From Gemmatimonadota bacterium (GTDB lineage Bacteria > Gemmatimonadota > Gemmatimonadetes > Gemmatimonadales > GWC2-71-9), in NCBI GenBank assembly GCA_003220795.1, contig QHTK01000044.1, forward strand, positions 14,673 through 78,672: a stretch of DNA of 64,000 nucleotides, in the 5' to 3' direction. The translations under genes were made by a program, and so were the position numbers. Every line of letters begins with the position of its first letter. Position 1 is the first letter of the stretch. A model generated the notes under the pieces. The model searched no databases and was not told the origin of the DNA. It was given only the letters and a program-made list of their open reading frames with translations. This document shows, in pieces, positions 38,955-55,514 of this stretch.

Positions 38955-41900
38955 GTGCCACTCTCCGGCTTTCACCCGACGATCGCGCGCTGGTTCGGCG
39001 ACCGGTTCGCGGAGCCCACCGAACCGCAGCGGGGCGCGTGGCCCGTCATTCAGGCGGGCCGTAACGCCCTGATCGCGGCGCCTACCGGCTCGGGGAAGAC
39101 GTTCGCCGCCTTCCTGGCGGCGATCGATTCCCTGCTGCGCCAGGGACTCGAGGGGACGCTGCGGGACGAAACGCAGGTGGTGTACGTGTCGCCGCTGAAG
39201 GCGCTCTCCAACGACGTTCAGAAGAACCTGGCCGAGCCGCTCGCCGAGATCCGGCGCACGCTCGAGGGGATGTGCCTTCCCGACGTAGAAATCCGGACGG
39301 TGGTTCGTACCGGTGACACGCCGGCGGCGGAGCGGCAAGCGATGGTGCACCGGCCGCCTCACATCCTCGTCACCACGCCCGAGTCGCTGTTTCTGATCCT
39401 TACGTCCGAACGCGCGCGCGAGATGCTCCGCAGCGTGCGCACGGTGATCGTCGACGAGATCCACGCGGTGGCGCGCGACAAGCGCGGCAGCCACCTCGCG
39501 CTGTCGCTCGAGCGGCTCGAGCACCTCGCGGGCCGGCGGCTGCAGCGCATCGGGCTCTCGGCGACACAAAAGCCGATCGAAGACATCGCCCAGTTCCTGG
39601 TCGGCGCCAATCGAGCCTCGAGCCCCGACTCAGGAGCCCCAACGATCATCGACTCCGGGCACGCCCGGGCGCTCGATCTCGCCATCGAGATCCTGTCCTC
39701 CCCGCTCGAAGCCGTGATGGCGGGTGAAGTGTGGGACGAGCTGTACGACCGGCTGGCGCAGTTGATCGGCGAGCACCGCACGACGCTCGTCTTCGTGAAC
39801 ACGCGGCGCTTGGCCGAGCGGCTCACGTTGCACCTGTCCGAGCGGCTCGGCGCGGAGCACGTGACCTCGCACCACGGCAGCCTGTCCAAAGAGAAGCGGC
39901 TCGACGCGGAGACCCGGCTCAAGGAGGGCAAGCTCAAGGCGCTCGTCGCGACGGCGTCGCTCGAGCTGGGGATCGACATCGGCACGGTGGACCTGGTGTG
40001 CCAGATCGGCTCGACGCGCTCGATTGCGACGCTGCTGCAGCGCGTGGGACGCGCGGGGCATCACCTCCAGGCAATCCCCAAGGGGCGGCTGTTCCCGCTG
40101 TCGCGCGACGAGCTGATCGAATGTGCGGCGCTGCTGCGGGCGACGGCGGAGCGCCGGCTGGACCGGCTGGTGATCCCCGACCACCCGCTCGACATCCTGG
40201 CTCAGCAGATCGTCGCGGCCGCCGCGGGCGACGAATGGGACGAAGCAGCGCTGTATGACCTGGTGCGCGGCGCGTATCCGTATCGCGACCTGTCCCGCAA
40301 GGACTTCGACGACGTAGTGCAGATGTTGGCGGAGGGGTTCACCACGCGCCGGGGCCGGCGCGGCGCGTACATCCACTACGACGGGGTGAACCACCGGCTG
40401 CGCGGCCGGCGCGGCGCCCGGCTCGCCGCCATCACCTCCGGCGGCGCGATCCCCGACATTGGGGACTACCGCGTGATCCTCGAACCGACCGAGACGTTCG
40501 TCGGCACGCTGAACGAGGATTTCGCGATCGAGAGCATGCCGGGCGATATCTTCCAGCTCGGCAACAGCTCGTACCTGATCAACAGGATCGAGTCGGGGCA
40601 GGTACGGGTGGTCGACGCGCAGGGCCAGCCGCCCAGCATTCCGTTCTGGTTGGGTGAAGCGCCGGCGCGCACGCCGGAGCTCTCGGAGGAAGTCTCCCGG
40701 CTCAGGCAGGACATCGCGGACCGTCTGGGCGATCCGCCCGGCGCGATCGCCTGGCTCGTGGGCGCCGTGCCGGGGCTCCCCGAGGCGGCGGCCCGCCAGA
40801 TGGTGGAGTACCTGGACGCCGCGCAGCGGATCCTCGGCGTCATTCCGACGCAGCAGACGCTCGTGCTCGAGCGGTTCTTCGACGAGGCGGGCGGGATGCA
40901 ACTGGTGCTGCACGCGCCGTTCGGCAGCCGCGTGAACCGGGCGTGGGGCCTGGCGCTGCGCAAGCGCTTCTGTCGCAGCTTCAACTTCGAGCTGCAGGCG
41001 GCGGCAACCGAAGATGCCATTGTTTTGTCGCTCGGGCCGCAGCACAGCTTCCCACTGGATGACGTGTTTCACTACCTCAAGCCCGACACCGCCGAGCACC
41101 TCTTGGTGCAGGCGATGCTGGACGCGCCCATGTTCGGCTCGCGGTGGCGCTGGAACGCAACGCGCGCGCTCGCGGTGCTGCGCTCGCGCGGCGGCAAGAA
41201 GGTGCCGACGCCGCTGCAGCGTATGGACGCGGAGGACCTGGTCGCCGCCGTCTTCCCCGACCAGCTCGCGTGCCCCGAGAATCTGGTAGGTGACCGGGAG
41301 ATCCCCCACCATCCGCTGGTGCAGCAGACGATCGCCGACTGCCTGCTCGAGGCGATGGACTTCCCCGGTCTGAAGCGGGTGCTCGAAGGCATGGATGCGG
41401 GACGCTTCACGCTGGTGGCGCGCGACACGCCGGAGCCGTCGCCCCTGTCGCACGAGGTGTTGAACGCCAAGCCGTACGCGTTCCTGGACGACGCCCCGCT
41501 GGAAGAGCGCCGCACCCAAGCCGTGATCACCCGCCGCGGCCTCGACGTGAAGACGGCCGACGAGCTCGGCACGCTCGACCGGGATGCGATCGACCGGGTG
41601 AAGGACGAGGCGTGGCCAGAGGTCACGAGCGCCGACGAACTTCACGACGCTCTACTCGTGATCGGTGCCGTCCCGAGTGCGGAATGCGGAGTGCGGAATG
41701 CGGAATGGCAGGGCCATTTCGATGAGCTGGCCGGGCAGCGGCGGGCAGGCCAGCTCATGACGGAGCGGCCCCTGTGGGTCGCGGCCGAGCGACTGCCGAT
41801 GCTCGAGGCGGTGTTCCCCGGGGCGGCATGCGAGCCGGCGCTGGTACCGCCCGAGCGGGAGCGCGCGAAGAGCTGGACCCGCGAGGACGGGATGCGTGAG

Positions 41901-43318: not shown

Positions 43319-43825
43319 TCACGTCGATCGGCGCGAGCCGAATCGGCGCCACGCGTGATTCGCCAGCCGGCGCAGCGTCCCCTGGCGCTGCGAGAGAGTG
43401 GATGCTTTCAGACGCACGTCCGCCAGCACCCGGTCGAAGCCCGCCGCCCGATCGGCACGGTTGCGCACCCAGGCGAGCCCCCCGAACAATCGCACCGCCC
43501 CATACAGCACGTACTTGACCGGCGCGCTCACGGCGAGCACGCCCATCGCTTCGAGGAAGATCGCGTCGGCCTGGCGCCGCGGCCGGGTCTGTGTCCAGTA
43601 CAGCCAGTCGTGAATGACGCTCGCGTTGCCGTAGCGCCCCCACTTCGGCAGGATCACCCAGAAGGGTCGGGGGATGGTGGCGAAGTCGGTCTGGAAGCCG
43701 ATCGCCACCTCGATGTGGTCGCCGCTGCCCTCCGAGCCGACGTCGTAACCGAACGCGCGCACGATCACCCAGGTGGTGCCGTCGGCGAGCGGCGTCACCA
43801 CGAGCGCGTCGGTGAAGCAGCTCAC
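43319..43825 (-). CDS. DUF1353 domain protein
   Basis: GFQTDFATIPR, ASVIHDWLY, ADAIFLEAM, AVRLFG. The GTG overlaps the msrA stop. Confidence 0.8.
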   Translation of the reverse strand: MSCFTDALVVTPLADGTTWVIVRAFGYDVGSEGSGDHIEVAIGFQTDFATIPRPFWVILPKWGRYGNASVIHDWLYWTQTRPRRQADAIFLEAMGVLAVSAPVKYVLYGAVRLFGGLAWVRNRADRAAGFDRVLADVRLKASTLSQRQGTLRRLANHAWRRFGSRRST

Positions 43826-44376
43826 GCCGGCTGTTTCAACTTGTCCAGAAAGAGCTTCCGGACCTTCGCCACCTTGGGCGCGATCACCGCGCTGCAGTAC
43901 CCCTGGTTCGGGTTGCGACGGAAGTAGTCGCGGTGGTACTCCTCGGCCGGATAGAACGACTCGAGCGGCTTGAGCTCCGTGACGATGGCGTCGTCCCACA
44001 CGTGCTCGCGTTGCAGCTCCGCGATCACCCGCTCGGCCGCGGCCCGCTGCTCGGGTGTGTGATAATAGATCGCGGAGCGATACTGGGTCCCGACATCCGC
44101 CCCCTGCCGGTTCAGGGTCGTCGGGTCGTGGATCGTGAAGAAGACATGCAGCAAGTCGTCGAACGAGACGACCCGGGGATCGAACGTGATCTGCACGACC
44201 TCGGCGTGGCCGGTGGTCCCCGTGCACACCTGCTCGTATGACGGGTTCGCCACGCGACCGCCCGCGTATCCGGACTGGACGCGCTCGACGCCCCTCAGAT
44301 CCTGGAACGCCGCTTCGAGGCACCAGAAACAGCCGCCGGCGAGGGTGGCGACTTCGCGCTGGGGAGTGGCAGTCAC
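43822..44376 (-). CDS. msrA: Peptide-methionine (S)-S-oxide reductase
   Basis: GGCFWC, GYAGG, TGHAEVV, QYRSAIY, AEEYH. Confidence 0.96.
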   Translation of the reverse strand: MTATPQREVATLAGGCFWCLEAAFQDLRGVERVQSGYAGGRVANPSYEQVCTGTTGHAEVVQITFDPRVVSFDDLLHVFFTIHDPTTLNRQGADVGTQYRSAIYYHTPEQRAAAERVIAELQREHVWDDAIVTELKPLESFYPAEEYHRDYFRRNPNQGYCSAVIAPKVAKVRKLFLDKLKQPA

Positions 44377-44455: not shown

Positions 44456-44944
44456 TCAAAACGCCCACCCGGCAAGGAAGCGCAACGTTATGCCGCCGCC
44501 ATGGCCGCCCGGGGTCTCGCCGCCGATCGTCCCGACGACGCCACACCCAAAGTCGAAGAAAAGCCCCGGCCTCGTGTCGGGCCACAGCTCCGATCCCAGC
44601 AGCGCGGCCCATTCCACGCGTGCGACGCCCGGTTCGTTGCGGCCGAAGAGGCGGGCGAGACCGACGCTGAGGTAGAGCAAGGGCTCGTGGTCCGCGCGCC
44701 GCGGCAGGAATGGATCGGGCAGTTGAACCTGGGCGTGGGCGCCCACGCCGCCGCCCCCGAGCGCGACGCCGAGGCCGATGGGAGCATCCGGCAAGCGGTG
44801 CAGCAGCGCGAGCGCAGTCCCGTAGCCGGTGACGTCGGACCAGCCGAACGCAAAGGCGGTATGAGTGGGTCGGAGATCCCCGAGCTGGGCAGCGACGGGA
44901 TGGATGGAGGTGAGGGCGAGCGCGACAGTCCAGAGTGCCCGCAT
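44456..44944 (-). CDS. Hypothetical secreted/outer-membrane protein
   Basis: Signal peptide and C-terminal aromatic LAGWAF. Confidence 0.55.
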   Translation of the reverse strand: MRALWTVALALTSIHPVAAQLGDLRPTHTAFAFGWSDVTGYGTALALLHRLPDAPIGLGVALGGGGVGAHAQVQLPDPFLPRRADHEPLLYLSVGLARLFGRNEPGVARVEWAALLGSELWPDTRPGLFFDFGCGVVGTIGGETPGGHGGGITLRFLAGWAF

Positions 44945-44953
44945 GGGGTAATC

Positions 44954-47900
44954 TTACCCCCAATCTTTCGACTCGGGCGCGACACGGCGCATGGACTTGA
45001 GGAATGCCATTGCGGATTGCGGATTGTGGATTGCGGATTCGACGGGCGGGTCTTCAAATCCGCAATGCAGTCCTTTCGCTTCCTCCGCCAGCACGTTCAC
45101 CGTCCCATCGTCTTTCGCGAGCTTACCCCGCACCCATAGGAGCGGCTCGCCGCGGATCGCCGTGCGGTGCTCCCGGTATACATCGGGCCGCACGATCACG
45201 TTCACCATCCCCGCTACGTCCTCGACCAGCACGAAGACGAATCCCTTGGCGGTCTCTGGGCGCTGGCGCGCGACGACCAGGCCCGCCACCTCGACTCTCG
45301 CCCCGTGCTCGAGCCGGGGAAGCGCGTCGCTCTGCACCACTCCGGGCGGCAGCACGTCGCGCAGGAGCGCGAGCGGATGGCCGCTCGCCGCGAACCCCAG
45401 CACCGCGTACTCGGCGAGCAGCCGCTCGTCCGCCGCGAGACCGCCGAAGCGCAGTCGCTCGAACGGGTGGTCGAGAGCGAGCTCGAGCTGGCGCCGGCCG
45501 CGTGCCTCGCCGCCCTGCTCCGCTTCGGGCGGGAGCCACAGCCCCACTTGCCACAACAGCTCGCGCCGCGTCAGGCCGAAGCCGTCGCACCCGCCGACCC
45601 ACACCAGGTGCTCGATCGCGCTGCGCTTGAGCTTGGGGGGAGCCCGCCTCACGAAATCACCGACGCTCCGGAACGGGCCGCGCGCGCGCTCGTCCACGAC
45701 CGCGGTCGCCGTCTCCTCGCTCCAATCCCGGATGAACCCGAGCCCTACTCGCACGGCATCTGCTCCCCTTCCCCCTTCCCCGGCCTTCAACCGGCCTTTT
45801 CCCCCTTCCACCGTGCACCACACGTCGCTCAGGTTCACATCGGGGAGCCGGATCTCGACCTCGTTGCGTTTGGCGTCCCGCCCCAGCGCGTCGAGCGAGT
45901 AGAACCCCATCGGCTGATTGTTGAAGAGCGCGCAGTAGTACTCGGCCGGGTGATAATGCCTGAGCCACGCCGACTGGTAGGCGAGCAGCCCGAACGCCGC
46001 GGCGTGCGACTTGGGGAACCCGAACTCCGAGAACGCGATCACCTGGGTGAAGACGCGTTCGGCGACCGGCTCGGGGACGCCGCGCGCCGCCGCCCCCTCA
46101 CGGAACTCGTCCCAGAATCCCGCCATCAGCTCGCGGCTACGCCGGCGGCTCATGGCGCGTCGCAGCGCCTCCGCCTGCCCCGGCGTGAACCCCGCGAGCG
46201 CCTGGCACACCTGGAGCACCTGGTCCTGATAGAGGATCACCCCCAGGGTCTCCGCGAGCGCGTCTTTCAGGAGCGGGTGGTCCACCGGTGGCTCGTAGCG
46301 GCGGCCGCGGGCCCGGGCGCGGCGCTCGTCCTCGCGCCGCCGCACGTAGGGATTCACCGCGCCGCCCACGATGGGGCCGGGCCGCACGATCGCCACTTCG
46401 ACCGCGAGATCCTCGAGATTGCGCGGCCGGGTGCGGCGCAGCATCTGGATCTGCGCCCTGCTCTCGATCTGGAACAGCCCCACGGTGTCGCCGCGGCAGA
46501 TGCGGTCGTACACCGCCTGGTCGGCGAAGTCGATGCGCGACAGATCGGGCGGCGCCCCCTGGCGCGTCGCGATCAGCTCGACGCTCTCCTCGACCAGCGA
46601 CAGCATGCCGAGCGCCAGGAAGTCGATCTTCACGAAGCGCGCGTCGTCGCAGGAGTCCTTGTCCCACTGGCACACGACGCGGTCTTCCATCGCCGCCCGC
46701 TCGAGCGGCACGACTTCGACGAGCGGCCGGCTCGAGATGATCATCCCGCCGACGTGCTGCGACACGTGGCGCGGCAGCCCGGCGATTTCCTCGGCTAGCT
46801 CGCACAGCTCCTTCCAGAGCGGGGCGGCGCGCCGCCCCGCGAAGCCGGGCAGCTGATCCAGCTCGTCCGCCAGCTCCCCCGACCGCCGGTCCGCCAGCTT
46901 GGCGACTTGCTCGATCTCTCCCAACGGCAGATCGAGCGCCTTGCCGATCTCGCGCACCGCGGAGCGGAGCCGGTAGGTGGGGAAGGCGCAGACCAGCCCC
47001 ACGTGCTCGTCGCCGTAGCGCTTGTAGACCCGCCGGATCAGCTCCTCGCGGATCTCGCGCGGGAAGTCGAGGTCGATGTCGGGTACCGATGCGAGGCTCT
47101 CGTTCAGGAACCTGCCCAGGAACAGGCGGTTGGCGATCGGGTCGATGTGCGACAGGCCGAGCAGGTAGCAGACGATGGACGACACCGACGAGCCGCGCCC
47201 GCGGCCGGGGAGCAGGTTTCCGAGGGCCCGCCGGGTGCCCCGGCGCACGTCGGCCGCCACCTCGCGTGCCAGGTCGAACAGGTCGTGATAGACCAGGAAG
47301 AACCCACTGAGTCGATGGTGTTCGATTAGTGTCAGCTCTTCCGCGAGCCGCCGCTCCGCCTCGCCCCGGGGCTCGGAGCCCGCCGGATAGCGCTCGTCGA
47401 GGCGGGCACGGCACAGCTCGGCGAGCGCCTGCGGGGCGGGCGACCGGTCGGCCCCGCGGAAGTCCGGAAAGCCGTAACCCAGGTCCCGGGTGAGGTCGAA
47501 CGCCCGGCAGCGCTCGGCGAGCGCGAGCGTGTTGGCGACAGCATCGGGACAGTCCGCGAACAGTTCGGCGACTTCCGCGGGCGGCCGCAGGTAGAACTCG
47601 CTGTTCGGCCGCCGCACACCGTGCGACCCGTCGAGGGTGGTGCGGTGGCGGATCGCTGTGAGCACGTCGTGCAGCCGGTGGCGGGCGCGGACGTGATAAT
47701 GCACGTTGCCGGACGCCACAACGCCAAGCCGCGCGGCGTCCGCCACATCCATCAGGGAGCGTGTCAGGGCCCGATCGCCCCGCACGTAGTTGCGCTGCAG
47801 CTCGACGTAGAACCGCTCGGCGCCGAACACGGCGCGACAGCGTTCGGCGAACGCTCGGGCGGCGGTCACGCCTTCGTGCATCAGGATCCGCGGCAGCAGG

Positions 47901-48280
47901 CCCGTGCGGCAGCCGGACAGCACGATGAGCCCGGCGTGGCGCGCCTCGAGCGACGCGAAGTCGAGCCGCGGATCGCGCCGGTCGGCGCTACCGAGATGCG
48001 CCTCGGTGATCAGCCGGCACAGGTTCGCGTATCCGTCGGGCGTCTCGGCGAGCAGCGTCACGTGGGAGCCGTCGCGCAGCGTCAGCTCCGCGCCGGTGAT
48101 CGCCTGGAGGCCGAGCTGCTTCGCTTCGTGCGCGAACGCCAGCGAGCCGTACAGGCCGTTGTGGTCGGTGAGCGCCAGCCCTGCGTAGCCGAGCTGCGAC
48201 GCCGTGAGCGCGAGCTGCTCGGGGAGAGATGCACCGTCGAGGAAAGAAAACGCCGAGTGGCAGTGGAGCTCGATATACAT
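44954..48280 (-). CDS. dnaE2: Error-prone DNA polymerase III alpha (DnaE2/ImuC)
   Basis: PHP domain YIELHCHSAFSFLDGAS, GRGS, PDIDLD, KIDFLALGML, QIESRAQ, GFPKSHAAAF, OB fold RQRPETAKG. Confidence 0.93.
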   Translation of the reverse strand: MYIELHCHSAFSFLDGASLPEQLALTASQLGYAGLALTDHNGLYGSLAFAHEAKQLGLQAITGAELTLRDGSHVTLLAETPDGYANLCRLITEAHLGSADRRDPRLDFASLEARHAGLIVLSGCRTGLLPRILMHEGVTAARAFAERCRAVFGAERFYVELQRNYVRGDRALTRSLMDVADAARLGVVASGNVHYHVRARHRLHDVLTAIRHRTTLDGSHGVRRPNSEFYLRPPAEVAELFADCPDAVANTLALAERCRAFDLTRDLGYGFPDFRGADRSPAPQALAELCRARLDERYPAGSEPRGEAERRLAEELTLIEHHRLSGFFLVYHDLFDLAREVAADVRRGTRRALGNLLPGRGRGSSVSSIVCYLLGLSHIDPIANRLFLGRFLNESLASVPDIDLDFPREIREELIRRVYKRYGDEHVGLVCAFPTYRLRSAVREIGKALDLPLGEIEQVAKLADRRSGELADELDQLPGFAGRRAAPLWKELCELAEEIAGLPRHVSQHVGGMIISSRPLVEVVPLERAAMEDRVVCQWDKDSCDDARFVKIDFLALGMLSLVEESVELIATRQGAPPDLSRIDFADQAVYDRICRGDTVGLFQIESRAQIQMLRRTRPRNLEDLAVEVAIVRPGPIVGGAVNPYVRRREDERRARARGRRYEPPVDHPLLKDALAETLGVILYQDQVLQVCQALAGFTPGQAEALRRAMSRRRSRELMAGFWDEFREGAAARGVPEPVAERVFTQVIAFSEFGFPKSHAAAFGLLAYQSAWLRHYHPAEYYCALFNNQPMGFYSLDALGRDAKRNEVEIRLPDVNLSDVWCTVEGGKGRLKAGEGGRGADAVRVGLGFIRDWSEETATAVVDERARGPFRSVGDFVRRAPPKLKRSAIEHLVWVGGCDGFGLTRRELLWQVGLWLPPEAEQGGEARGRRQLELALDHPFERLRFGGLAADERLLAEYAVLGFAASGHPLALLRDVLPPGVVQSDALPRLEHGARVEVAGLVVARQRPETAKGFVFVLVEDVAGMVNVIVRPDVYREHRTAIRGEPLLWVRGKLAKDDGTVNVLAEEAKGLHCGFEDPPVESAIHNPQSAMAFLKSMRRVAPESKDWG
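45008..45067. repeat. In-frame GCGGATT heptamer array with inverted partner, in the dnaE2 C-terminus
   Basis: CATTGCGGATTGCGGATTGTGGATTGCGGATT and AATCCGCAATG, encodes SAIHNPQSAM. Confidence 0.75.
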
Positions 48281-48281
48281 A

Positions 48282-48631
48282 AGTGCGGAATGCGGAGTGC
48301 GGAATGCGGAATGGATGCGCGTGCTTCGATGCCGCGTTCCGGCAACCGTGTTCGCTAAGGCTTTTGTAAGAACCACTCCTGTGTCACGTGATCAACGAAT
48401 AACACTGCCCGTTGCCCACCCTCCAGAAGCACTTCGTAGTACGTCCGCGTGATCGGATCCCTCCACCACTCATCATCGATCCGCCATGTCTCCCGGACAG
48501 CCTCGATCGGCCCCACTCCGGTTCGCGAGGGCAATCCACATGCATCGAGTTCTACCTGCACGCGTTGTGGAACGTTGAGGGCTCGAAGTCGGTCAGTTCC
48601 ATTCCGCATTCCGCACTCCGCATTCCGCACT
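48282..48631. repeat. Perfect 34-bp inverted repeats (48282-48315, 48598-48631) made of GCGGAAT units
   Basis: AGTGCGGAATGCGGAGTGCGGAATGCGGAATGGA and its exact reverse complement. Confidence 0.9.
48355..48630 (-). CDS. Small DUF6504-like protein of the imuB-dnaE2 cassette
   Basis: ETWRIDDEWWR..I.RTYYEV...W motif and position between imuB and dnaE2. Confidence 0.75.
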   Translation of the reverse strand: MRNAECGMRNGTDRLRALNVPQRVQVELDACGLPSRTGVGPIEAVRETWRIDDEWWRDPITRTYYEVLLEGGQRAVLFVDHVTQEWFLQKP

Positions 48632-49931
48632 AGGTTTCATACTCGATCAACGCGTACCGCCGCTCCGGGAGCCGCGACCACGGCTGTACCTCGATGATGC
48701 GGTAGAGCAGCGTGCGCTTGAGCCGGAGCCGGATCTCCTGCAGGGCGGTGCGGAGGGCGCGCCGCCGGCCGGCCCGCGCAGCCGCGTTCGCGTCGCGGGC
48801 GAAGAGTTGCAGCTCGGCGGTGCCCGGCGCGAAGGCGGTGAACTCGACGGCGAGCCGCTCCACCGCGCCCGCGGGTGGCGCCTGCTCGAGCCGGGTCCGG
48901 AGCGGCGCGGCGATGCGATCCCGGTCGGCGGTCGGATCCTTCAGGGTCGCTGCGATCATCCACGATGCCCCATGCTCGAGCTCAGCACGGACGCGCACTA
49001 CCTGCACCCGCCAGCCGATGCGACGGGGATGCTGGAGCGCGCGCTCGATCAGCCGGTCCAGCGCGTGTGCGAGCATCGCGCGATCGACGACGGGAGAGAA
49101 AAACGCGAGCGCGGCGACGATCGGCTCGGGCGCTTCGCGGCCCACGACCCGCTCGACCACCTCCCCCGCCGCGAGCCGCCACATGCGGCGGCCGGCCGCG
49201 CCGAACTGCGAGACGACCGCTTCCTGCGGCAGCGCGGCGAGCCGGCCGAGGGTGGTGAGCCCGAGCTGGCGGAGCCGGCGGTGCGTGTCGGGATCGAGCG
49301 AGAGGGCGGCGAGCGGTTGGGAGGAGAGAAATGCCCCCTCCTCCCCCGGCTGTACGATCACGGCTTCCCCCGGGCGCGCGCGTGTGGCGGCGACCCAGGA
49401 GACGAACTTGCCGCGGCCCCACCCAACGCGGAGTGCGGAATGCGGAATGCGGAATGCGGAGTGTAAGTGCGAGTCTCGTGTGGCGAACGACCCTTCACTG
49501 AAATTCCGCATTCCGCATTCCGCACTCCGCATTTGTATGATTTCGACGATCTGCTGTGGCGAACCGTATAACTTTTCCAAGCCGTCAGTTCCTACGTATG
49601 CCCGCCCCAGCTCCGCCGGCTCCACCACCGGGCTCACCTCGCTCAGCGCTGCCAGCAGTCGCGCGAACTGCTCGTCGTAATGGACCGGGTCGGGCTCACA
49701 CAGCCGCAGCGACGAGCAGAGACCGATCGCCTGGCTGACCGTCATTCCCGGCTTTACTCCCGCGCGGTGAGCGAGTGGCGAGACCTGCCAGATCCGGCGG
49801 GTGGTGTCGGGGGCGAGTAAGGCGCACGGCTGGGACGCGAGCTCGGGTCGCCGCGCCTCTTCGCAGCGCAGGGCGAAGAGGGGGATCCAGCAGCAGGCGG
49901 CGGTCGAGCTCGCGAGATGATTGTGCGGCAT
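48630..49931 (-). CDS. imuB: ImuB-like catalytically inactive Y-family polymerase
   Basis: AGVKPGMTVSQA IMS motif. Catalytic acidic residues replaced (CCWIPLF; ELGRAY). LRQLGLTTLG HhH and ELQLF. Confidence 0.85.
   Translation of the reverse strand: MPHNHLASSTAACCWIPLFALRCEEARRPELASQPCALLAPDTTRRIWQVSPLAHRAGVKPGMTVSQAIGLCSSLRLCEPDPVHYDEQFARLLAALSEVSPVVEPAELGRAYVGTDGLEKLYGSPQQIVEIIQMRSAECGMRNFSEGSFATRDSHLHSAFRIPHSALRVGWGRGKFVSWVAATRARPGEAVIVQPGEEGAFLSSQPLAALSLDPDTHRRLRQLGLTTLGRLAALPQEAVVSQFGAAGRRMWRLAAGEVVERVVGREAPEPIVAALAFFSPVVDRAMLAHALDRLIERALQHPRRIGWRVQVVRVRAELEHGASWMIAATLKDPTADRDRIAAPLRTRLEQAPPAGAVERLAVEFTAFAPGTAELQLFARDANAAARAGRRRALRTALQEIRLRLKRTLLYRIIEVQPWSRLPERRYALIEYET
49428..49532. repeat. 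Inverted pair of GCGGAAT arrays in frame inside imuB
   Basis: 49428-49463 and 49503-49532, encode RSAECGMRN...HSAFRIPHSALR. Confidence 0.85.
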
Positions 49932-49946
49932 GCGGTGTTTTCAGGG

Positions 49947-49965
49947 ACCCGAATATATCCCGAAG
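49947..49965 (-). promoter_or_regulatory. Putative SOS-like operator overlapping a TATATT -10, upstream of imuB
   Basis: CTTCGGGATATATTCGGGT on the minus strand, identical copy at 54619-54637. Confidence 0.75.
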
Positions 49966-50026
49966 ATCGCAGGGGTCGCAAGGCTGGTTCCTGAGCAGAT
50001 AAACCATTGATATATTTCGACTTCTA

Positions 50027-50971
50027 ATGACCAGTCGTAACCAACCGAGTCTGTTCGAAGACATCGCCTCGCTCCCGCCACCTCCGCAGGAGCTCGTCGC
50101 GCTCGGCCGCCACATTCCTCCGTCCATTCGGTTTGGCACTTCGACCTGGACCTACGACGGCTGGGCGGGCGACGTCTATCATCGGAGCTACCGGGGAGCG
50201 CAGCCGGCACGCCGGCTCGAGGAGTACGCGCGCTACCCGTTGTTCCAGACGGTGGGGATCGACAGCGCGTACTACGAGCCACCCGAAGAACCGGTGCTCG
50301 CCGCGTACGCGAAGGCCTTACCGCCGGGCTTCCCCTGTGTCAGCAAGGTGTGGGATCGCATCACCGCGCGGCGGCTCGAGAGTGAGCGGAACCCCGATTT
50401 CCTGAACGCGGATCTCTTCAAGGATGCGGTGCTGGGGCCCTACCAGCGCGCCTTCTCGGACCACGCGGGGTGTTTCGTGTTCGAGTTCCAGCCGATGCGC
50501 GGCAAGGACCTCCCCGATCCCGCGCGTTGGCCGGACGACCTCGACGACTTCCTGCGACAGCTGCCGCGCGATGTCCGCTATGCGGTCGAATTGCGGAACC
50601 GCGAGCTGCTGAGCGACGGGCACGGCGCCGTCCTGGCGCGCCATGGGGTGGCGCACGTCTTCAATTCTTGGACCGAGATGCCCACCATCGGCGAGCAGCT
50701 CGAGCTGCCGTGGACCTTTCCGGCGCCCTTCACCGTCGCGCGGGCATTGCTCCGACCGGGACGCCGCTACGCCGACGCGGTGAAGCTGTTCGAGCCGTAC
50801 GATCGGATTCGCGATCCGCAGCCCGAGCTGCGGCAGGACCTGCTGCGGCTGGTCGCCGAGGCGCTCAGGCGACGGGTGGAGGCGTTGATCCTCGTCAACA
50901 ACCGGCTCGAGGGAAATGCGCCGGGGACGATCCGCGCGCTGGTCGACGCATTGACCGGGGAGCGGTCGTGA
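50027..50971 (+). CDS. DUF72 (YecE-like) protein 1
   Basis: FGTSTWTYDGW, TVGIDSAYY, YAVELRN, NNRLEGNAP. Confidence 0.9.
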   Translation: MTSRNQPSLFEDIASLPPPPQELVALGRHIPPSIRFGTSTWTYDGWAGDVYHRSYRGAQPARRLEEYARYPLFQTVGIDSAYYEPPEEPVLAAYAKALPPGFPCVSKVWDRITARRLESERNPDFLNADLFKDAVLGPYQRAFSDHAGCFVFEFQPMRGKDLPDPARWPDDLDDFLRQLPRDVRYAVELRNRELLSDGHGAVLARHGVAHVFNSWTEMPTIGEQLELPWTFPAPFTVARALLRPGRRYADAVKLFEPYDRIRDPQPELRQDLLRLVAEALRRRVEALILVNNRLEGNAPGTIRALVDALTGERS

Positions 50972-51930
50972 ACGGCGGCCGCCCCTCCCCGGCGGAGCCG
51001 CTGCCGCCGCCGCGTGCCGAGCTCGTCGCGCTCGCCGCGGCGGTGCCGCCTGGGATCAAGTTCGGGACGGCGAGCTGGACCGTGGACGGCTGGGCGGGCG
51101 ACGTGTACCACCGGAGTTATCGAGGAGCCCAGCCGGCGGCGCGGCTCGAGGAATACGTGCGGTACCCGCTGTTCCGCACCGTGGGGATCAACTCCGCCTT
51201 CTACGAGTCTCCCTCCGAGCGGATTCTCGATGCGTACGCCCGCGCGCTGCCCGAGGGGTACTCCTGCGTCGTGAAGGTGTGGGACCGGATCACGGCCCGC
51301 CGCTTCATCCGGGACCGGCGCTGGGGACCGCTGGCGGGCCAGCTCAACCCCGATTTCCTGGACGCGCGCCTGTTTCTCGGCAGTGTGCTGGCGCGCTACG
51401 CGCGGGTGTTCAGCCGGCACTCGATCTGTTTCGTGTTCCAGTTCCAGGCGATGCGGGGCGCGGACCTGCTCGATGCCGCAGCGTGGGCCGAGCGACTCGA
51501 TCGATTCTTCGGGCAGCTGCCGCAGGATTTCCGCTACGCGGTCGAGCTGCGGAACGCCGAGCTCCTGACGGACCACCACGGCGCCGTGCTCGAGCGGCAC
51601 GGCGTGGCACACGTGTTCAACTCCTGGACCGAGATGCCGCCAATCGGCACGCAACTGCATCTTCCCTGGACCCTCGCGGCGCCGTTCACCGTCGCGCGCG
51701 CACTCCTCAAGCCGGGGCGGAAGTATGCCGAGGCGGTGCGGGCGTTCGAGCCGTACGACCGTGTGAAAGAAGTGTTACCCGAGTTGCGCCGCGATCTGCT
51801 GCGCCTCATGGGGGAAGCCGAGCGGCGGGGCATCGAGGCACTGATACACGTGAACAACCGGGCCGAGGGGAACGCGCCGGGGACGATCCGGGAGCTGGCC
51901 GAGCAATGGATCAACGGGCGGGGGCCCTGA
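50968..51930 (+). CDS. DUF72 (YecE-like) protein 2, tandem paralogue
   Basis: FGTASWTVDGW, TVGINSAFY, YAVELRN, NNRAEGNAP. GTGA overlap with the upstream gene. Confidence 0.9.
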   Translation: MNGGRPSPAEPLPPPRAELVALAAAVPPGIKFGTASWTVDGWAGDVYHRSYRGAQPAARLEEYVRYPLFRTVGINSAFYESPSERILDAYARALPEGYSCVVKVWDRITARRFIRDRRWGPLAGQLNPDFLDARLFLGSVLARYARVFSRHSICFVFQFQAMRGADLLDAAAWAERLDRFFGQLPQDFRYAVELRNAELLTDHHGAVLERHGVAHVFNSWTEMPPIGTQLHLPWTLAAPFTVARALLKPGRKYAEAVRAFEPYDRVKEVLPELRRDLLRLMGEAERRGIEALIHVNNRAEGNAPGTIRELAEQWINGRGP

Positions 51931-51940
51931 TGCGGGGGCG

Positions 51941-51986
51941 GCCTGCGGCGCGTGGAGTTGCCACGCGTCCGCAGGCGTGCTAGCGT
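51941..51986 (+). promoter_or_regulatory. Hairpin (51941-51976) overlapping a sigma70-like promoter TTGCCA-N17-TAGCGT
   Basis: GCCTGCGGCGCGTGG / CCACGCGTCCGCAGGC inverted repeat, -35 at 51958, -10 at 51981. Confidence 0.5.
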
Positions 51987-52040
51987 ATCATGGTGTAACC
52001 CCCGGAAAACCGCACAAACCGCACGCCGCGGGGGCGGTGC

Positions 52041-52463
52041 ATGAGCGCTAGTCGTCGGGGTGTTCCGACGCTCCCGGTCGAGTTGTTGCGGGACGCCGTC
52101 GGACGGGAAGTCGCGCGGTTGTCGTTACGCGGCGCGGCCAAGGCCATTGCGGTCAGCCCGAACGGGCTGCGCAACTTTTTGAACGGCTCGGCTCCCCGCA
52201 GCGCCACCCGCGCAAAGTTGGAACGCTGGCTCGCCACCCAGGACCGCCCCTCGCGCCCGCCGGGCGTGGGTCAGCTCGTTCGGCTGCTGAGCGAGCTCTC
52301 GGCGGACCTCTCTCCCCAACAGACGGAGCAGCTCGGGCGCGCCATCACGGTGCTGCTCGCCGACGCCTACACGGCGCGTCGGCTCGCGTCGCCCCGGTGG
52401 GTGCAGGAGCTGCTCCGGCATTACCAAACGCGCCGGGGCAAGAGCTCGAGCGAAGTCGCCTAG
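52041..52463 (+). CDS. Hypothetical XRE-like HTH protein, paralogue A
   Basis: SLRGAAKAIAVSPNGLRNFLNG HTH-like pattern, clear similarity to 52835-53254. Confidence 0.75.
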   Translation: MSASRRGVPTLPVELLRDAVGREVARLSLRGAAKAIAVSPNGLRNFLNGSAPRSATRAKLERWLATQDRPSRPPGVGQLVRLLSELSADLSPQQTEQLGRAITVLLADAYTARRLASPRWVQELLRHYQTRRGKSSSEVA

Positions 52464-52519
52464 GGCAGCCCTTGCGGGGGATGCACCCCGGTGGTAGGTA
52501 GTAGGGGAAGACGTGCAGT

Positions 52520-52834
52520 TTGTGCAGTTGTCCCGGAGCCGCGTGGGGAAGCCCACATGTCTGGAGCCTGTTGAAGCGCCGCGCCGCGCGCAGCACCGCA
52601 AGGACAAAGTCCCCCCGCGCGCGGGAGACCGAGCAGAGCTCGAGTGCGAAGGTCAGGGAGATCGTGCGTCTCGTAGAGGCGTTGAGCGGCGATCTCGGCT
52701 CCCATGACGGGGTGGTCGTAGGCCGGGGTATGGCGCAGCTGTTGGTCGAAGCGTATGGGGAGCGACGCGAGCCGGTGCCGAGCTGGGTCAGGGAGCTGCT
52801 CGCCCAATTCGCCCCGGGGACGCCGCGCGTTTGA
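52520..52834 (+). CDS. Paralogue B with the C-terminal domain only (start uncertain, possibly TTG 52571)
   Basis: VREIVRLVEALSGDL..GRGMAQLLVEAY.ERR..P.WVRELL aligns with the C-halves of both neighbours. Confidence 0.6.
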   Translation: MCSCPGAAWGSPHVWSLLKRRAARSTARTKSPRARETEQSSSAKVREIVRLVEALSGDLGSHDGVVVGRGMAQLLVEAYGERREPVPSWVRELLAQFAPGTPRV

Positions 52835-53254
52835 GTGCCACGCCCCCGTGGTAGCGTCGTCCCGACGCTGCCGATAGGCTTGTTGCGCGACGCGGTCGCG
52901 CGGGAAGCCGCGCGCTCCTCCTTGAGAAGCGTTGCGCGAGAGCTTGCCATGAGCCCGAATGGCGTGCGCGACTTCGTGCAGGGTGCGATGCCGCGGGGCG
53001 CCACCCGGCTGAAGGTCGAGCGGTGGCTCGTGTCGCAGGGACGAATCGCCCGACCACCCAACGTCGGCCAGTTCGTCCGGTTATTGAACGAGTTGGCGGG
53101 AGACCTCTCCCCCACGCAAGCGGTTCAGATGGGCCGCCACCTCGCTGCGTTGCTCGTCGAGTCGTACGAGGAGCGCCGACTGGCGCCGCCGCCCTGGGTG
53201 CGGCAGCTGGTTCGCTATTACGAGCCCCCCCGAACCGCGGGCGACGTCGCGTGA
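52835..53254 (+). CDS. Hypothetical XRE-like HTH protein, paralogue C
   Basis: VPTLPIGLLRDAVAREAARSSLRSVARELAMSPNGVRDFVQG. Confidence 0.75.
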   Translation: MPRPRGSVVPTLPIGLLRDAVAREAARSSLRSVARELAMSPNGVRDFVQGAMPRGATRLKVERWLVSQGRIARPPNVGQFVRLLNELAGDLSPTQAVQMGRHLAALLVESYEERRLAPPPWVRQLVRYYEPPRTAGDVA

Positions 53255-53294
53255 GGCGTGCTGCGCGGTCGCCGACCGCTACAACGGGCGGCCG

Positions 53295-54386
53295 TCATAA
53301 CGCCAGCTCGCCCTGCGACGCGGGCAGCCGGCGCTCGTAGCGATCCTGCATTCCTTCGTTCACCGGGAAGCCGTACTTCTGTTGCAGCCGCTGGACGCGT
53401 TGCCGCAGCGCCGCCGCGTATTGTCGCGGTGCGCCCAGCGAGCGCGCGTAGGCGCGACGATACCGCTGCTCCAGCCCGGGAAACTGCTCGCGCAGGAGCG
53501 GCAGGAAGCGATCCCGCACGGCAGGGTAGAGCCGCAGCGCCCCCGCGTGCACGAACCGGGCGCCGGCCTCGCGGGCCGCCTGAAAGAGCGCTTCCAGGTG
53601 GGCCACGTCGTCCGTGATCCCCGGCAGCACCGGCGCCACGATCAGCCCCGCCCGCACGCCCGCGTCGGTGAGCCGTTTCAGCGCGCGCAGCCGGACGCCG
53701 GGCACCGGGGAGCGAGCCTCGATCTTGCGGATCAGCCCAGCGTCGACCGAGATCAGCGAGACGTATACCTCGAGATCGTTCGCATCCTGCAGACGGCGCA
53801 GCACGTCGCGGTCGCGCGCCACGAGCGGGCTCTTCGTGATGAGGCCGACGTTCAAGCCCTCGCAGCGCGCCAGCCGCTCGAGCACGCGGCGCGTGAGCCG
53901 GAAGCGACGCTCGGCGGGCTGGTAGGGGTCCGTCGCGGTGCCGATGACGAGCGGGGCGGTCCCTAAAGGACTGGGCGAGCCGTCAGGCGGACGCGCGGAC
54001 CGGAAGTACCGCTGCAGGTCCCGCTCCAGCGCGGCAAGCAGCCCCTCCTTCACGAAGATGCGCCGCTCAAACGCCTCCCAGCCATGCGGCCCGCGGAAAT
54101 CCTGAAACTCGCTGTCCGAGAGCTTCCCTGCATCGCGCGCGCGCTCGACCACGTAGCGATGTGCGTAGCGCGCATAGCAGTAGCTGCATCCGAACTCGCA
54201 CCCCACGTACGGGTTCAGCGACCAGAAGTCCACGCCCGTTTGCTGCGGGGAATTGAGGATCGACTTGGGCGTGAGCGACACGAACCTCGTGCCGCGCAGG
54301 CGCTCGTCGAGCACCGGCAGCGCCGACGGGCGCATCGCCGGATAGTCGGATAGATGAAGCCCGATCTGCTCGCTGTTACTGTGCAT
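53295..54386 (-). CDS. Radical SAM protein, spore photoproduct lyase-like (Rv2578c/SplB-like)
   Basis: NPYVGCEFGCSYCYAR, TATDPYQPAE, ITKS, APVLPGITD. Confidence 0.9.
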   Translation of the reverse strand: MHSNSEQIGLHLSDYPAMRPSALPVLDERLRGTRFVSLTPKSILNSPQQTGVDFWSLNPYVGCEFGCSYCYARYAHRYVVERARDAGKLSDSEFQDFRGPHGWEAFERRIFVKEGLLAALERDLQRYFRSARPPDGSPSPLGTAPLVIGTATDPYQPAERRFRLTRRVLERLARCEGLNVGLITKSPLVARDRDVLRRLQDANDLEVYVSLISVDAGLIRKIEARSPVPGVRLRALKRLTDAGVRAGLIVAPVLPGITDDVAHLEALFQAAREAGARFVHAGALRLYPAVRDRFLPLLREQFPGLEQRYRRAYARSLGAPRQYAAALRQRVQRLQQKYGFPVNEGMQDRYERRLPASQGELAL

Positions 54387-54392
54387 TGTCGA

Positions 54393-54424
54393 TCCGCCTA
54401 CCCGTCTACCCGTCTATCCGTCTA
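54393..54424. repeat. Intergenic 8-bp tandem array (CCGTCTA-type)
   Basis: TCCGCCTACCCGTCTACCCGTCTATCCGTCTA. Confidence 0.6.
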
Positions 54425-54428
54425 GCAG

Positions 54429-54575
54429 TTACCCGCACCGCGCCCAGCCACACTGCACGCACACCAGGCACCCGGACTGTCGGGTGAGACCCGCGCCGCA
54501 GTCGGGACAGGGTGCCGTCCGAGCGGGTGGAGACGGCGGGGGTACGGGCTTGGGCAACTCGAGCGGCGCGTGCAT
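54429..54575 (-). CDS. 48-aa zinc-ribbon microprotein, absent from the ORF track
   Basis: MHAPLELPKPVPPPSPPARTAPCPDCGAGLTRQSGCLVCVQCGWARCG, with a GGAG RBS upstream. Confidence 0.75.
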   Translation of the reverse strand: MHAPLELPKPVPPPSPPARTAPCPDCGAGLTRQSGCLVCVQCGWARCG

Positions 54576-54618
54576 TCGGAGCTCCGCGATGTTCGCTGCT
54601 CTTGGTTCTGTCTCGCGT

Positions 54619-54637
54619 ACCCGAATATATCCCGAAG
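54619..54637 (-). promoter_or_regulatory. Putative SOS-like operator upstream of the Zn-ribbon / radical SAM operon
   Basis: 19/19 identical to 49947-49965. Confidence 0.75.
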
Positions 54638-54677
54638 CTCTCTATCGGCAAGGCCTGTTACCGGTTAGCGTAAGCGG

Positions 54678-55514
54678 ATGCCAAGCAAGAAGATAGCATT
54701 CCAGGGCGAGCCGGGGGCGTACAGCGAGGAAGCGCTGTTCTTATTGGCTCCTGATGCCGAGTCGCAGCCACACCGTGAGTTCCGCGACGTGGCGCAAGCG
54801 GTGCTCGACCGGCGCGCGCAGTACGGCCTGCTGCCGATCGAGAACTCGCTCGTGGGCTCGATTGCCACCAACTTCGACCTGATCGCCGAGTCGGGCTTGG
54901 CGATCGTGGGCGAGGTGGTGAGCGCGGTGCATCACTGCCTGCTCGGCATACCCGGCGTCGAGCGCGCGGCATTGCGCCGGGTGTTGTCGCACCCGGTAGC
55001 GCTGGCGCAGTGCGAGCGGTTCCTGCGTGAGTTGTCGGGCGTCGAGATCGTCGCGTTCTACGACACGGCGGGTGCGGCGGCGGAGGTCGCCCGGCGCCGC
55101 GATGCGTCGCTCGGCGCCGTGGCGGGCGCGCTCGCGGCGCACCGCTACGGTCTCGACGTGGTGGCGGAGCGGATCGAAGACGAGCCGCACAACCAGACCC
55201 GCTTTTTGCTGGTGGCGCGCGAGGCCACGGCGCCGCCCCCCGACGTCGCGGCGAAAACCACGCTGCGTCTCAAGCTGCCGCACCGTCCCGGGACGCTGGC
55301 GCGCGCGCTCGCGCCGTTCGCCGAGGCGGGGCTCAACCTCACCAAGCTCGAGAGCCGGCCCGACCGTTCGACCCCGTGGGAGTACCTCTTCTATCTCGAC
55401 GTGGAAGCGCGGGCCGACGAGCCCGCGATGCGCGCCGCGCGCGCCGCACTGGCGGCGCAGGGAGCGGTGATCACACTGCTCGGGGAGTACGCGCGCTTCG
55501 CCCCGCGCGCCTGA
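54678..55514 (+). CDS. pheA: Prephenate dehydratase
   Basis: AFQGEPGAYSE, PIENS, SHPVALAQC, NQTRF, LTKLESRP ACT domain. Confidence 0.94.
   Translation: MPSKKIAFQGEPGAYSEEALFLLAPDAESQPHREFRDVAQAVLDRRAQYGLLPIENSLVGSIATNFDLIAESGLAIVGEVVSAVHHCLLGIPGVERAALRRVLSHPVALAQCERFLRELSGVEIVAFYDTAGAAAEVARRRDASLGAVAGALAAHRYGLDVVAERIEDEPHNQTRFLLVAREATAPPPDVAAKTTLRLKLPHRPGTLARALAPFAEAGLNLTKLESRPDRSTPWEYLFYLDVEARADEPAMRAARAALAAQGAVITLLGEYARFAPRA

Follow-up and report, generated by a model that had tools for sequence, protein, structure and literature searches.

A probable LexA-controlled SOS island with a split-ImuB mutasome in a Gemmatimonadota genome

The window analyzed in this work is a stretch of 64,000 nucleotides from a Gemmatimonadota bacterium (contig QHTK01000044.1, C81 in the numbering used here), whose genome of 3.3 Mb in 103 contigs is 92.4% complete. 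The region of interest, 44954-54637, encodes the error-prone polymerase DnaE2, an inactive Y-family polymerase (iPolY, called imuB in an earlier sequence-only reading of the region), a small protein corresponding to the C-terminal domain of ImuB (ImuB-C), a radical S-adenosylmethionine (SAM) protein and a six-cysteine microprotein. The region is probably a LexA-controlled SOS island, in which a mutasome with ImuB split in two is co-regulated with repair enzymes that act separately from it.

On the minus strand the order of transcription is the six-cysteine open reading frame (ORF), the radical SAM gene, iPolY, an ORF of 84 amino acids (aa) and dnaE2. Between the radical SAM gene and iPolY lie five genes of the plus strand, namely two DUF72 genes and two full-length helix-turn-helix (HTH) paralogues, with a truncated third HTH copy between the HTH pair. 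One promoter serves iPolY, ImuB-C and DnaE2 and the other serves the microprotein and the radical SAM enzyme, each with a copy of the same repeat spanning its -10 box. All the genes named in the sequence-only reading were found where it had placed them, including the tandem DUF72 genes that fill the divergent side of imuB. The main features are the following.

44954..48280, minus strand: dnaE2, error-prone C-family polymerase, 1108 aa from ATG 48280, ending in ...APESKDWG (NF004225; Pfam PHP, DNA_pol3_alpha, finger, HHH_6)
48355..48609, minus strand: putative stand-alone ImuB-C protein, 84 aa, the 'DUF6504' gene of the sequence-only reading (profile comparison, AlphaFold2 model)
48630..49931, minus strand: iPolY ('imuB'), predicted inactive Y-family polymerase, 433 aa (Pfam IMS, IMS_C)
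49947..49965, minus strand: operator 1, TTCGGG-ATATA-TTCGGG, over the -10 TATATT of the imuB promoter, in the intergenic region common with the divergent DUF72 gene
50027..50971, plus strand: DUF72 copy a, divergent from imuB (PF01904, 95.2 bits, cut-off 25.3)
50968..51930, plus strand: DUF72 copy b, its GTG start overlapping the TGA stop of copy a (GTGA) (PF01904, 94.6 bits, cut-off 25.3)
53295..54386, minus strand: radical SAM protein, predicted spore-photoproduct-lyase (SPL) fold, relative of Rv2578c/PA0069 (PF04055, AlphaFold2 model)
54429..54575, minus strand: putative six-cysteine Zn-ribbon microprotein, 48 aa (conserved cysteines, match to the class II ribonucleotide reductase tail)
54619..54637, minus strand: operator 2, identical to operator 1, over the -10 box of the Zn-ribbon/radical SAM promoter

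The polymerase cassette

The iPolY protein contains the Pfam IMS and IMS_C domains, and every NCBIfam Pol IV match stayed under its cut-off. In the alignment with E. coli Pol IV the SLDE motif stands opposite AELG, so that the catalytic D103/E104 are lost, and by ungapped extension D8 corresponds to C14; the loss is likewise seen in the relatives. Because SLDE aligns with AELG and D8 with a cysteine, in the relatives as well, iPolY is predicted to be a catalytically inactive Y-family polymerase. Its last 60 residues are nearly invariant and comprise ELQLF, then the RRRALRTALQEIRLRLKR helix and finally the EVQPWSRLPERRYAL tail. The consensus of the beta clamp motif is QL[SD]LF (PMC3919608). For the RRRALRTALQEIRLRLKR helix we infer a resemblance to the RecA N-terminus. 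No ImuB-C domain was detected in the iPolY of the window with the ImuB-C profile (hhalign E 0.57). The label imuB is thus right for a Y-family homologue and wrong for a canonical ImuB, the protein being a dead polymerase without the ImuB-C domain.

The 84-aa ORF had been called DUF6504. Scans with Pfam and NCBIfam assigned it to no family, and PF20114 (DUF6504) gave no match in the genome at E <= 10 and none in 27 close family members. Among 31 distant relatives PF20114 had 9 matches, all weak, 2 of them past the cut-off, so the link is transitive only: the label holds at a distance, through relatives, and not directly on the ORF. A literature search for 'DUF6504' found nothing. Since Pfam did not mark DUF6504 on two canonical ImuB proteins either, profiles were compared to establish the link to ImuB-C.

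A profile of 76 members of the 84-aa family aligned with residues 417-458 of 461, i.e. the last 42, of the canonical Rhodanobacter ImuB (hhalign probability 83%, E 9.3e-6), which is encoded in a string of lexA-like, imuA, imuB and dnaE2 genes. In a phylum sample of 151 genomes the ImuB-C profile found 34 strong stand-alone ORFs and 32 weaker matches, 31 of the latter inside open frames of at least 442 aa; it reached the C-termini of fused ImuB proteins in the phylum down to E 1.9e-12. The four long frames examined all had imuB-like matches, with dnaE2 following in two (L094, L097) and an imuA-like match upstream in two (L094, L095). The family itself is large (127 matches; separately 1144 clusters at 50% identity, the best 150 all of 66-197 aa). 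The AlphaFold2 (AF2) model of the protein is all-beta, with a mean predicted local distance difference test (pLDDT) score of 90.2; Foldseek with this model gave nothing below E 0.4, and a PDB sequence search with the ImuB-C profile gave 0 matches. Because iPolY is devoid of ImuB-C and the small protein aligns with the C-terminus of canonical ImuB, the 84-aa protein is, on this comparison, the missing C-terminal domain of ImuB made as a separate protein, and the cassette carries a split ImuB (iPolY plus ImuB-C).

The dnaE2 product scored 965.9 bits with NF004225 ('error-prone DNA polymerase', cut-off 939). The ORF extends to a GTG at 48376, adding 32 residues that are repeat-coded and lie outside the family match, which begins at residue 32-33 of the longer ORF. 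The unusual C-terminal SKDWG pointed out in the sequence-only reading was confirmed. The motif SRDF[H/R] is found in this position in about 77% of DnaE2 proteins (PMC3919608), and a C-terminus of the type [SA][KR]xW[GA] in 67 of 70 related DnaE2 ORFs, so SKDWG appears to be the form that the DnaE2 C-terminal motif takes in this lineage. The comparisons with related loci comprised the best 80 of at least 552 loci, which are close kin, hence the counts are not independent; the close relatives are labelled Gemmatimonadota/Gemmatimonadales with two exceptions, a 2-kb contig labelled otherwise and an 'uncultured bacterium'.

Searching plasmids with iPolY by tblastn yielded 5 distant Pol IV-like matches and no canonical imuB; the canonical cassettes were reached through plasmid matches of DnaE2 and not of iPolY. 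The best plasmid match of the DnaE2 of the window (40% identity) is on the Thermomicrobium roseum plasmid NC_011961.1 (L089), where it stands behind a gene for a 357-aa RecA-like protein and one for a 416-aa ImuB-like protein annotated 'hypothetical protein'. The C-terminus of this ImuB-like protein aligned weakly with ImuB-C (E 0.0036).

The radical SAM pair and its linkage to the cassette

The radical SAM protein scored 50.6 bits with PF04055 (cut-off 29.5), and C63, C67 and C70 of its CxxxCxxC motif were invariant in 46 sequences. The six best PDB matches of its AF2 model (pLDDT 86.6) were all SPL (E 5.6e-9 to 2.9e-8, TM score 0.56-0.62), aligned over 322-325 columns, and the next was the pyruvate formate-lyase-activating enzyme (E 4e-6). 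According to the model, the protein has the SPL fold over its whole length. In one related genome (G041, C73:4783-5861) the orthologue was found as two abutting pieces, covering profile positions 5-174 and 173-362, and looks frameshifted or broken.

The microprotein carries the motif CPxC-x9-C-x2-C-x2-CGW-x2-CG at its very end, invariant in 35 sequences, behind a proline-rich N-terminus that varies. The six cysteines are C23, C26, C36, C39, C42 and C47, and the protein ends at G48. It matched the last 30 positions of the class II ribonucleotide reductase (RNR) model NF006417 (E 3.4e-7); in PHROGs only families of no assigned function were found, plus a weak RNR match for the microprotein (E 0.004). 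For the class II RNR NrdJd, the available text of PMC5704485 describes a six-cysteine tail that is a zinc-binding element and delivers electrons to the active site. As a hypothesis, the microprotein could be the redox partner of the radical SAM enzyme. Complex prediction for the two proteins gave a score of 0.00, the fold of the microprotein itself being uncertain, and speaks neither for nor against a contact.

DUF72 copies a and b are 67.6% identical. The available part of PMC11791011 describes DUF72 as a TIM barrel similar to UVDE and as enriched next to PolB2 mutasome operons. No PDB sequence matched the DUF72 protein when searched with it.

The linkage of these genes to the cassette was surveyed in the 45 of the 80 loci that had at least 6 kb upstream of imuB. 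The radical SAM gene lay on the same strand within 8 kb upstream of imuB in 40 of the 45 loci, and directly upstream of it in 11. DUF72 was divergent from imuB and adjacent to it in 27/45, two DUF72 genes were present in 2/45, the microprotein was found by tblastn in 30/45, and at least one HTH gene in 11/45. In the phylum sample, where the ImuB-C profile matches and the positions of radical SAM orthologues were compared by coordinate tables, the orthologue lay within 10 kb in 22 of the 34 split-type genomes and on another contig in 5; the remaining 7, of which 6 belong to other families, had no orthologue or a distant paralogue elsewhere. Four genomes (G040, G092, G104, G131) had the radical SAM orthologue, by coordinates, 2-3 kb from a fused-type ImuB-C match. 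Orthologues occurred in 63 of 71 genomes of the family, compared with ImuB-C in 29 of 71 (the tally includes G057). The linkage of the radical SAM gene to the cassette is thus real and recurrent, and the gene does not depend on the cassette. The synteny survey therefore bears out the conserved linkage of the radical SAM gene and DUF72 to the cassette that the sequence-only reading had left to be checked. Its wider suggestion, a mutasome linked to a lesion-processing module, stands as regards co-regulation and not as regards a joint module, the radical SAM gene being more widespread than the cassette.

These distributions bear on a possible physical coupling between the mutasome and the repair enzymes. 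As a damage sensor or adaptor, ImuB-C could bring DnaE2 and the SPL-fold radical SAM enzyme, perhaps also DUF72, to the same lesion, so that the island would be one repair-or-bypass machine; a recruiting role of ImuB-C, in operons with SplB-like genes, is proposed in the accessible text of PMC3765255. Such coupling would agree with the 14 loci in which the genes for the Zn-ribbon protein, radical SAM enzyme, iPolY, ImuB-C and DnaE2 form one string behind a single box, as well as with the same-strand upstream position in 40/45 loci, the distance of up to 10 kb in 22/34 split-type genomes and the orthologues 2-3 kb from a fused imuB. It is at odds with the excess of radical SAM orthologues over ImuB-C in the family (63/71 against 29/71), with the split cassettes of families f6 and f7, which are devoid of a linked orthologue, and with the two operons of the window being kept apart by five genes of the opposite strand. 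A physical machine is considered unlikely, and co-regulated separate enzymes are favoured over it.

The operator, its putative regulon and the search for imuA

The 19-mer CTTCGGGATATATTCGGGT was found in exactly two copies in the window, 49947-49965 and 54619-54637, both on the minus strand, and had 0 matches in 100 shuffles. The identical 19-mer thus precedes both imuB and the convergent Zn-ribbon/radical SAM operon, as the sequence-only reading had it. The first copy ends 16 nt 5' of the imuB ATG, so that there is indeed no room for imuA between them, and the other lies 44 nt before the ATG of the microprotein. Only two sigma-70-like promoters were found in 44800-54800, each with its -10 TATATT inside an operator.

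The core of the operator is the direct repeat TTCGGG-N5-TTCGGG. Genome-wide there are 4 exact cores, located before lexA, a DinB/YfiT-family gene, the Zn-ribbon/radical SAM pair and imuB, while the reversed control motif gave 0; sites with one mismatch numbered 25 (8 for the control) and included a second one before lexA and one 24 nt 5' of the recA ATG. The copy at C16:21724-21742 is an exact operator 23 nt before a gene for a 162-aa DinB/YfiT-family protein (Pfam DinB, E 4e-8), which is thus a candidate fifth member of the regulon. A further operator-like site, C51:2060-2078, differs from the core at 1 position and has an AT-rich spacer. It is found some 110 nt upstream of a holB-like gene (DNA polymerase III delta'), on the other strand.

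All 28 lexA loci compared in the family, among them that of the genome itself, had the motif upstream of lexA (up to 2 mismatches, within 150 nt, on the strand of the gene), and 26 of them had two sites in tandem. In these 28 loci the TTCGG half-sites were kept and the spacer varied freely. The region upstream of imuB was compared in the 65 split-type loci that hold the 5' end of imuB and at least 260 nt upstream of it. In 51 of them imuB does not immediately follow the radical SAM gene; 50 of these had the site before imuB, 46 as the identical 17-mer. In the other 14 imuB comes after the radical SAM gene at a distance of no more than 300 nt, and here the site was absent before imuB in every case and present before the Zn-ribbon/radical SAM pair in 13. 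The repeat also stands before lexA in 28/28 relatives and before recA, a distribution that most likely marks it as the LexA box of this lineage. The regulon that we infer has very few members, namely lexA, recA, the mutasome, the radical SAM pair and the DinB-family gene. A literature search, in which none of the papers listed contains the word Gemmatimonadetes, found no description of a LexA box for Gemmatimonadota.

In several relatives (L028, L037, L049, L054, L074, L076-L078, L080, L084, L086 and others) a second box was seen about 40 nt downstream on the opposite strand before the Zn-ribbon/radical SAM genes. The operon in such loci is preceded by an inverted pair of direct repeats; the window has a single copy.

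The repeat could also be the site of another damage regulator, or a plain conserved promoter. The -10 hexamer falls within its spacer, which hardly varies before imuB, XRE-like HTH genes are present in the island, and LexA-independent damage regulators of the XRE family are reported from other phyla in the available text of PMC12288472 and PMC8072749. The sites upstream of lexA, with half-sites kept in 28/28 loci around a free spacer, show the pattern of a protein-binding site and not that of a -10 box; lexA, recA and a mutasome form the classical SOS core; and HTH genes occur in only 11/45 loci against a nearly universal box. A regulator other than LexA, or a mere promoter, is therefore very improbable.

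The search for imuA was conducted over the 92.4% complete genome. The ImuA model NF033429 found recA only (44 bits), PF00154 found one RecA above the cut-off and two weak matches in other ORFs, and the ImuA proteins of Rhodanobacter and Thermomicrobium used as queries again found recA only; no canonical ImuB was found in the genome, the only match of this kind being the iPolY of the window. The sequence-only reading had named an imuA elsewhere under the same box as the finding that would speak against it, and none was detected. The role of ImuA in the cassette is most likely taken by RecA itself. Of the proposed 'ImuA-independent mutasome', then, the part that holds is that imuA is not detectable; the mutasome is probably not free of a RecA-fold partner. 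That an ordinary imuA sits in the unassembled 8% of the genome, as part of a canonical mutasome with a displaced imuA, is barely credible: the genome is indeed fragmented into 103 contigs and other families of the phylum do have imuA-like genes beside imuB, but such genes (2 of 4 loci examined) go with an ImuB fused to ImuB-C, in the 65 split-type loci the position of imuA is taken by the box and DUF72 or by the radical SAM gene, and DnaE2X genomes devoid of ImuA are described in the available part of PMC12926913.

In the favoured reading, a LexA-controlled island with a split-ImuB mutasome and separate repair enzymes, LexA would bind the repeat, and its cleavage after DNA damage would release both operons. 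The three cassette proteins would then form the split-ImuB mutasome, with the dead Y-family polymerase as the scaffold: ELQLF would hold the beta clamp, the helix similar to the RecA N-terminus would dock on RecA, which replaces ImuA, and the separate ImuB-C beta-barrel would grip DnaE2 at its PHP domain, a contact modelled for ImuB-C in the accessible text of PMC12926913. DnaE2 could then copy across lesions. The radical SAM enzyme may reverse a lesion of the thymine-dimer type, and DUF72, with a TIM barrel similar to that of UVDE, would probably cleave damaged DNA; both would be co-regulated separate repair enzymes and not subunits of the mutasome.

Several observations weigh against parts of this reading. 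The likeness of ELQLF to the clamp motif was judged by eye, the alignment to ImuB having E 0.27. The match of RRRALRTALQEIRLRLKR (positions 34-57 of the iPolY C-terminus) to RecA 18-41, the top hhalign match, is non-significant (E 0.59), and BLASTP gave no match. The radical SAM protein falls under the equivalog cut-offs (183.7 against 430 for NF038135, 179 against 360 for NF033668), and the PDB sequence search with its profile returned 0 matches. DUF72 has no box of its own and is linked through the common intergenic region only. The spacer ATATA is almost invariant before imuB (46/51 loci), where the site is readable as a promoter element alone. Finally, with a genome 92% complete a distant imuA is strictly possible.

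Neighbouring features and relation to known systems

The HTH genes and the heptad repeats of the island are listed below.

52041..52463, plus strand: XRE-like HTH protein, 140 aa (HTH_31, E 1.9e-4, under its cut-off)
52520..52834, plus strand: truncated HTH paralogue, C-terminal domain only (aligned to residues 45-128 of the first HTH protein, 37% identity)
52835..53254, plus strand: second full-length HTH paralogue, 139 aa
48285..48310, plus strand: GCGGAAT heptad array between ImuB-C and dnaE2, inverted partner of 48603-48628
48603..48628, minus strand: GCGGAAT array between iPolY and ImuB-C, covering the ImuB-C start codon
49425..49533, minus strand: in-frame palindromic GCGGAAT element inside iPolY, about residues 136-168 (arrays 49428-49460 and 49505-49530)

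The sequence-only reading had counted three paralogous small genes here; two are full-length HTH copies, and the third is truncated and has lost the HTH part. The family of the HTH protein is mostly from Gemmatimonadota, with the nearest Atlas clusters all from this phylum. The arrangement of a truncated copy between two full HTH genes is seen again in relatives (L011, L012, L022, L032, L048), and the number of full-length copies upstream of imuB varies from 0 to 3 among loci. The HTH genes were considered as the source of the regulator of the box, which was judged unlikely given their presence in only 11/45 loci. Downstream of dnaE2, a DUF1353 gene lies at 43319-44323 on the minus strand; a homologue on the same strand was found within 6 kb in 33/56 loci and within 1.3 kb in 12, and the gene may be a loosely linked neighbour of the cassette.

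GCGGAAT arrays number 23 genome-wide, 4 of them within 1.3 kb of the cassette; in the window there is also an array at 41679-41704 and a partial copy at 45012-45023. The element inside iPolY forms a 31-bp stem (-69.2 kcal/mol, z -10.4) and sits in a loop whose length varies among homologues. The two inverted arrays flanking the ImuB-C ORF are 292 nt apart. The ORF was considered as cargo of these arrays, and the idea was rejected: the genes of relatives often overlap or abut with no arrays, and the family is far wider than the repeats. In the C-terminal linker of DnaE2 (44954-45060) the peptide VESAIHNPQSA is identical to one that the palindrome encodes in the iPolY loop of L034 and L048, which suggests a remnant of a heptad array inside dnaE2.

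Over the 80 loci, arrays of period 7 numbered 101 in 362 kb of cassette and 21 in 826 kb of flanks, i.e. they were 11 times denser in the cassette, a ratio that overstates independence since the loci are related. At least one such array was present in 46/80 loci, with at least 15 different units. As controls, arrays of period 8 were 3.2 times denser in the cassette, and those of periods 5, 6 and 9 were rare. In 55 complete loci the arrays were placed in dnaE2 (25), iPolY (23), ImuB-C (6), at junctions (9) and outside (15).

A more far-reaching proposal, which we hold to be rather unlikely, would bring these elements together. The microprotein, as a free-standing class II RNR tail, would be a dedicated zinc/thiol electron shuttle for an SOS-induced radical SAM repair enzyme of SPL fold; the pair and the split-ImuB mutasome would make up an ancestral five-gene 'reverse lesion or copy across' operon under one LexA box; and the heptad hairpins would be an internal device that restrains or senses how strongly the mutagenic polymerase is expressed.

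The island provides a clean, well-conserved natural example of the proposed split-ImuB mutasome. As split and fused ImuB coexist in the phylum, the proposed evolutionary step can be compared directly among relatives. The locus also supplies a candidate LexA box for Gemmatimonadota, points to a possible protein partner for the long-uncharacterized SOS-regulated SplB-like radical SAM enzymes, and draws attention to the crowding of heptad hairpins inside mutasome genes.

With the canonical ImuA(ImuA')-ImuB-DnaE2 system of Caulobacter, Pseudomonas and Mycobacterium the island has in common an SOS-controlled DnaE2, a dead Y-family partner and a conserved DnaE2 tail motif; it differs in having no detectable ImuA, ImuB in two genes and a DnaE2 tail ending in SKDWG. 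The LexA box of Alphaproteobacteria is the direct repeat GTTC-N7-GTTC. The candidate box described here is built in the same way, from units with a TTC core repeated directly every 11 bp, whereas its half-site is TTCGG(G).

The closest published arrangement is the small, taxonomically diverse DnaE2X group, which the available text of PMC12926913 ties to iPolY, ImuB-C and RecA in genomes devoid of ImuA. The arrangement is there named split ImuB and regarded as a possible precursor of ImuA-ImuB-DnaE2, and an AlphaFold model of the M. tuberculosis mutasome places ImuB-C on the PHP domain of DnaE2. Both systems combine DnaE2, an inactive PolY and a stand-alone ImuB-C in one string, with no ImuA, and in both ImuB-C is all-beta with no relative in the PDB. 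The likeness rests on gene content and not on placement in the DnaE2X clade, and Gemmatimonadota has 0 occurrences in the main text of that paper. The Zn-ribbon/radical SAM pair, DUF72 and the TTCGGG operator are features of the present island that the available part of the paper does not mention.

ImuB-C was defined in PMC3765255, the accessible part of which describes stand-alone ImuB-C (prototype GSU0042) with DnaE2 and an inactive DinB and also with SplB-like radical SAM genes. Both of these SOS-linked contexts recur here. They differ from the published cases in being joined in one island, in 14 relatives as one gene string, with a six-cysteine microprotein gene before the radical SAM gene.

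The available texts further describe splB as SOS-regulated in alpha- and beta-proteobacteria (PMC3323433) and report a site at Rv2578c in a chromatin immunoprecipitation study of LexA (PMC3381160). The SOS-regulated splB/Rv2578c/PA0069 genes and the present gene all encode an SPL-like radical SAM protein behind a LexA-type box; here the protein is below the cut-offs of both named families, a gene for a Zn-ribbon microprotein stands in front and a mutasome adjoins. The microprotein and the NrdJd tail have in common six cysteines at the extreme C-terminus and a local sequence match, as far as the tail is described in the available text of PMC5704485, whereas here a free putative Zn-ribbon protein of 36-59 aa is encoded before a radical SAM gene. 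As in the PolB2 operons of PMC11791011, in the part available, DUF72 adjoins a damage-inducible error-prone polymerase operon; the present system is based on DnaE2, and DUF72 is divergent from a common operator region and duplicated in this genome.

The architecture of the cassette has therefore already been published (PMC3765255 in 2013, PMC12926913 in 2026), as has the link of stand-alone ImuB-C to SplB-like genes. What may be new is the LexA box of the phylum, along with the six-cysteine protein encoded with the radical SAM gene, the occurrence of DUF72 next to a DnaE2-type cassette and the hairpins formed by the heptads.

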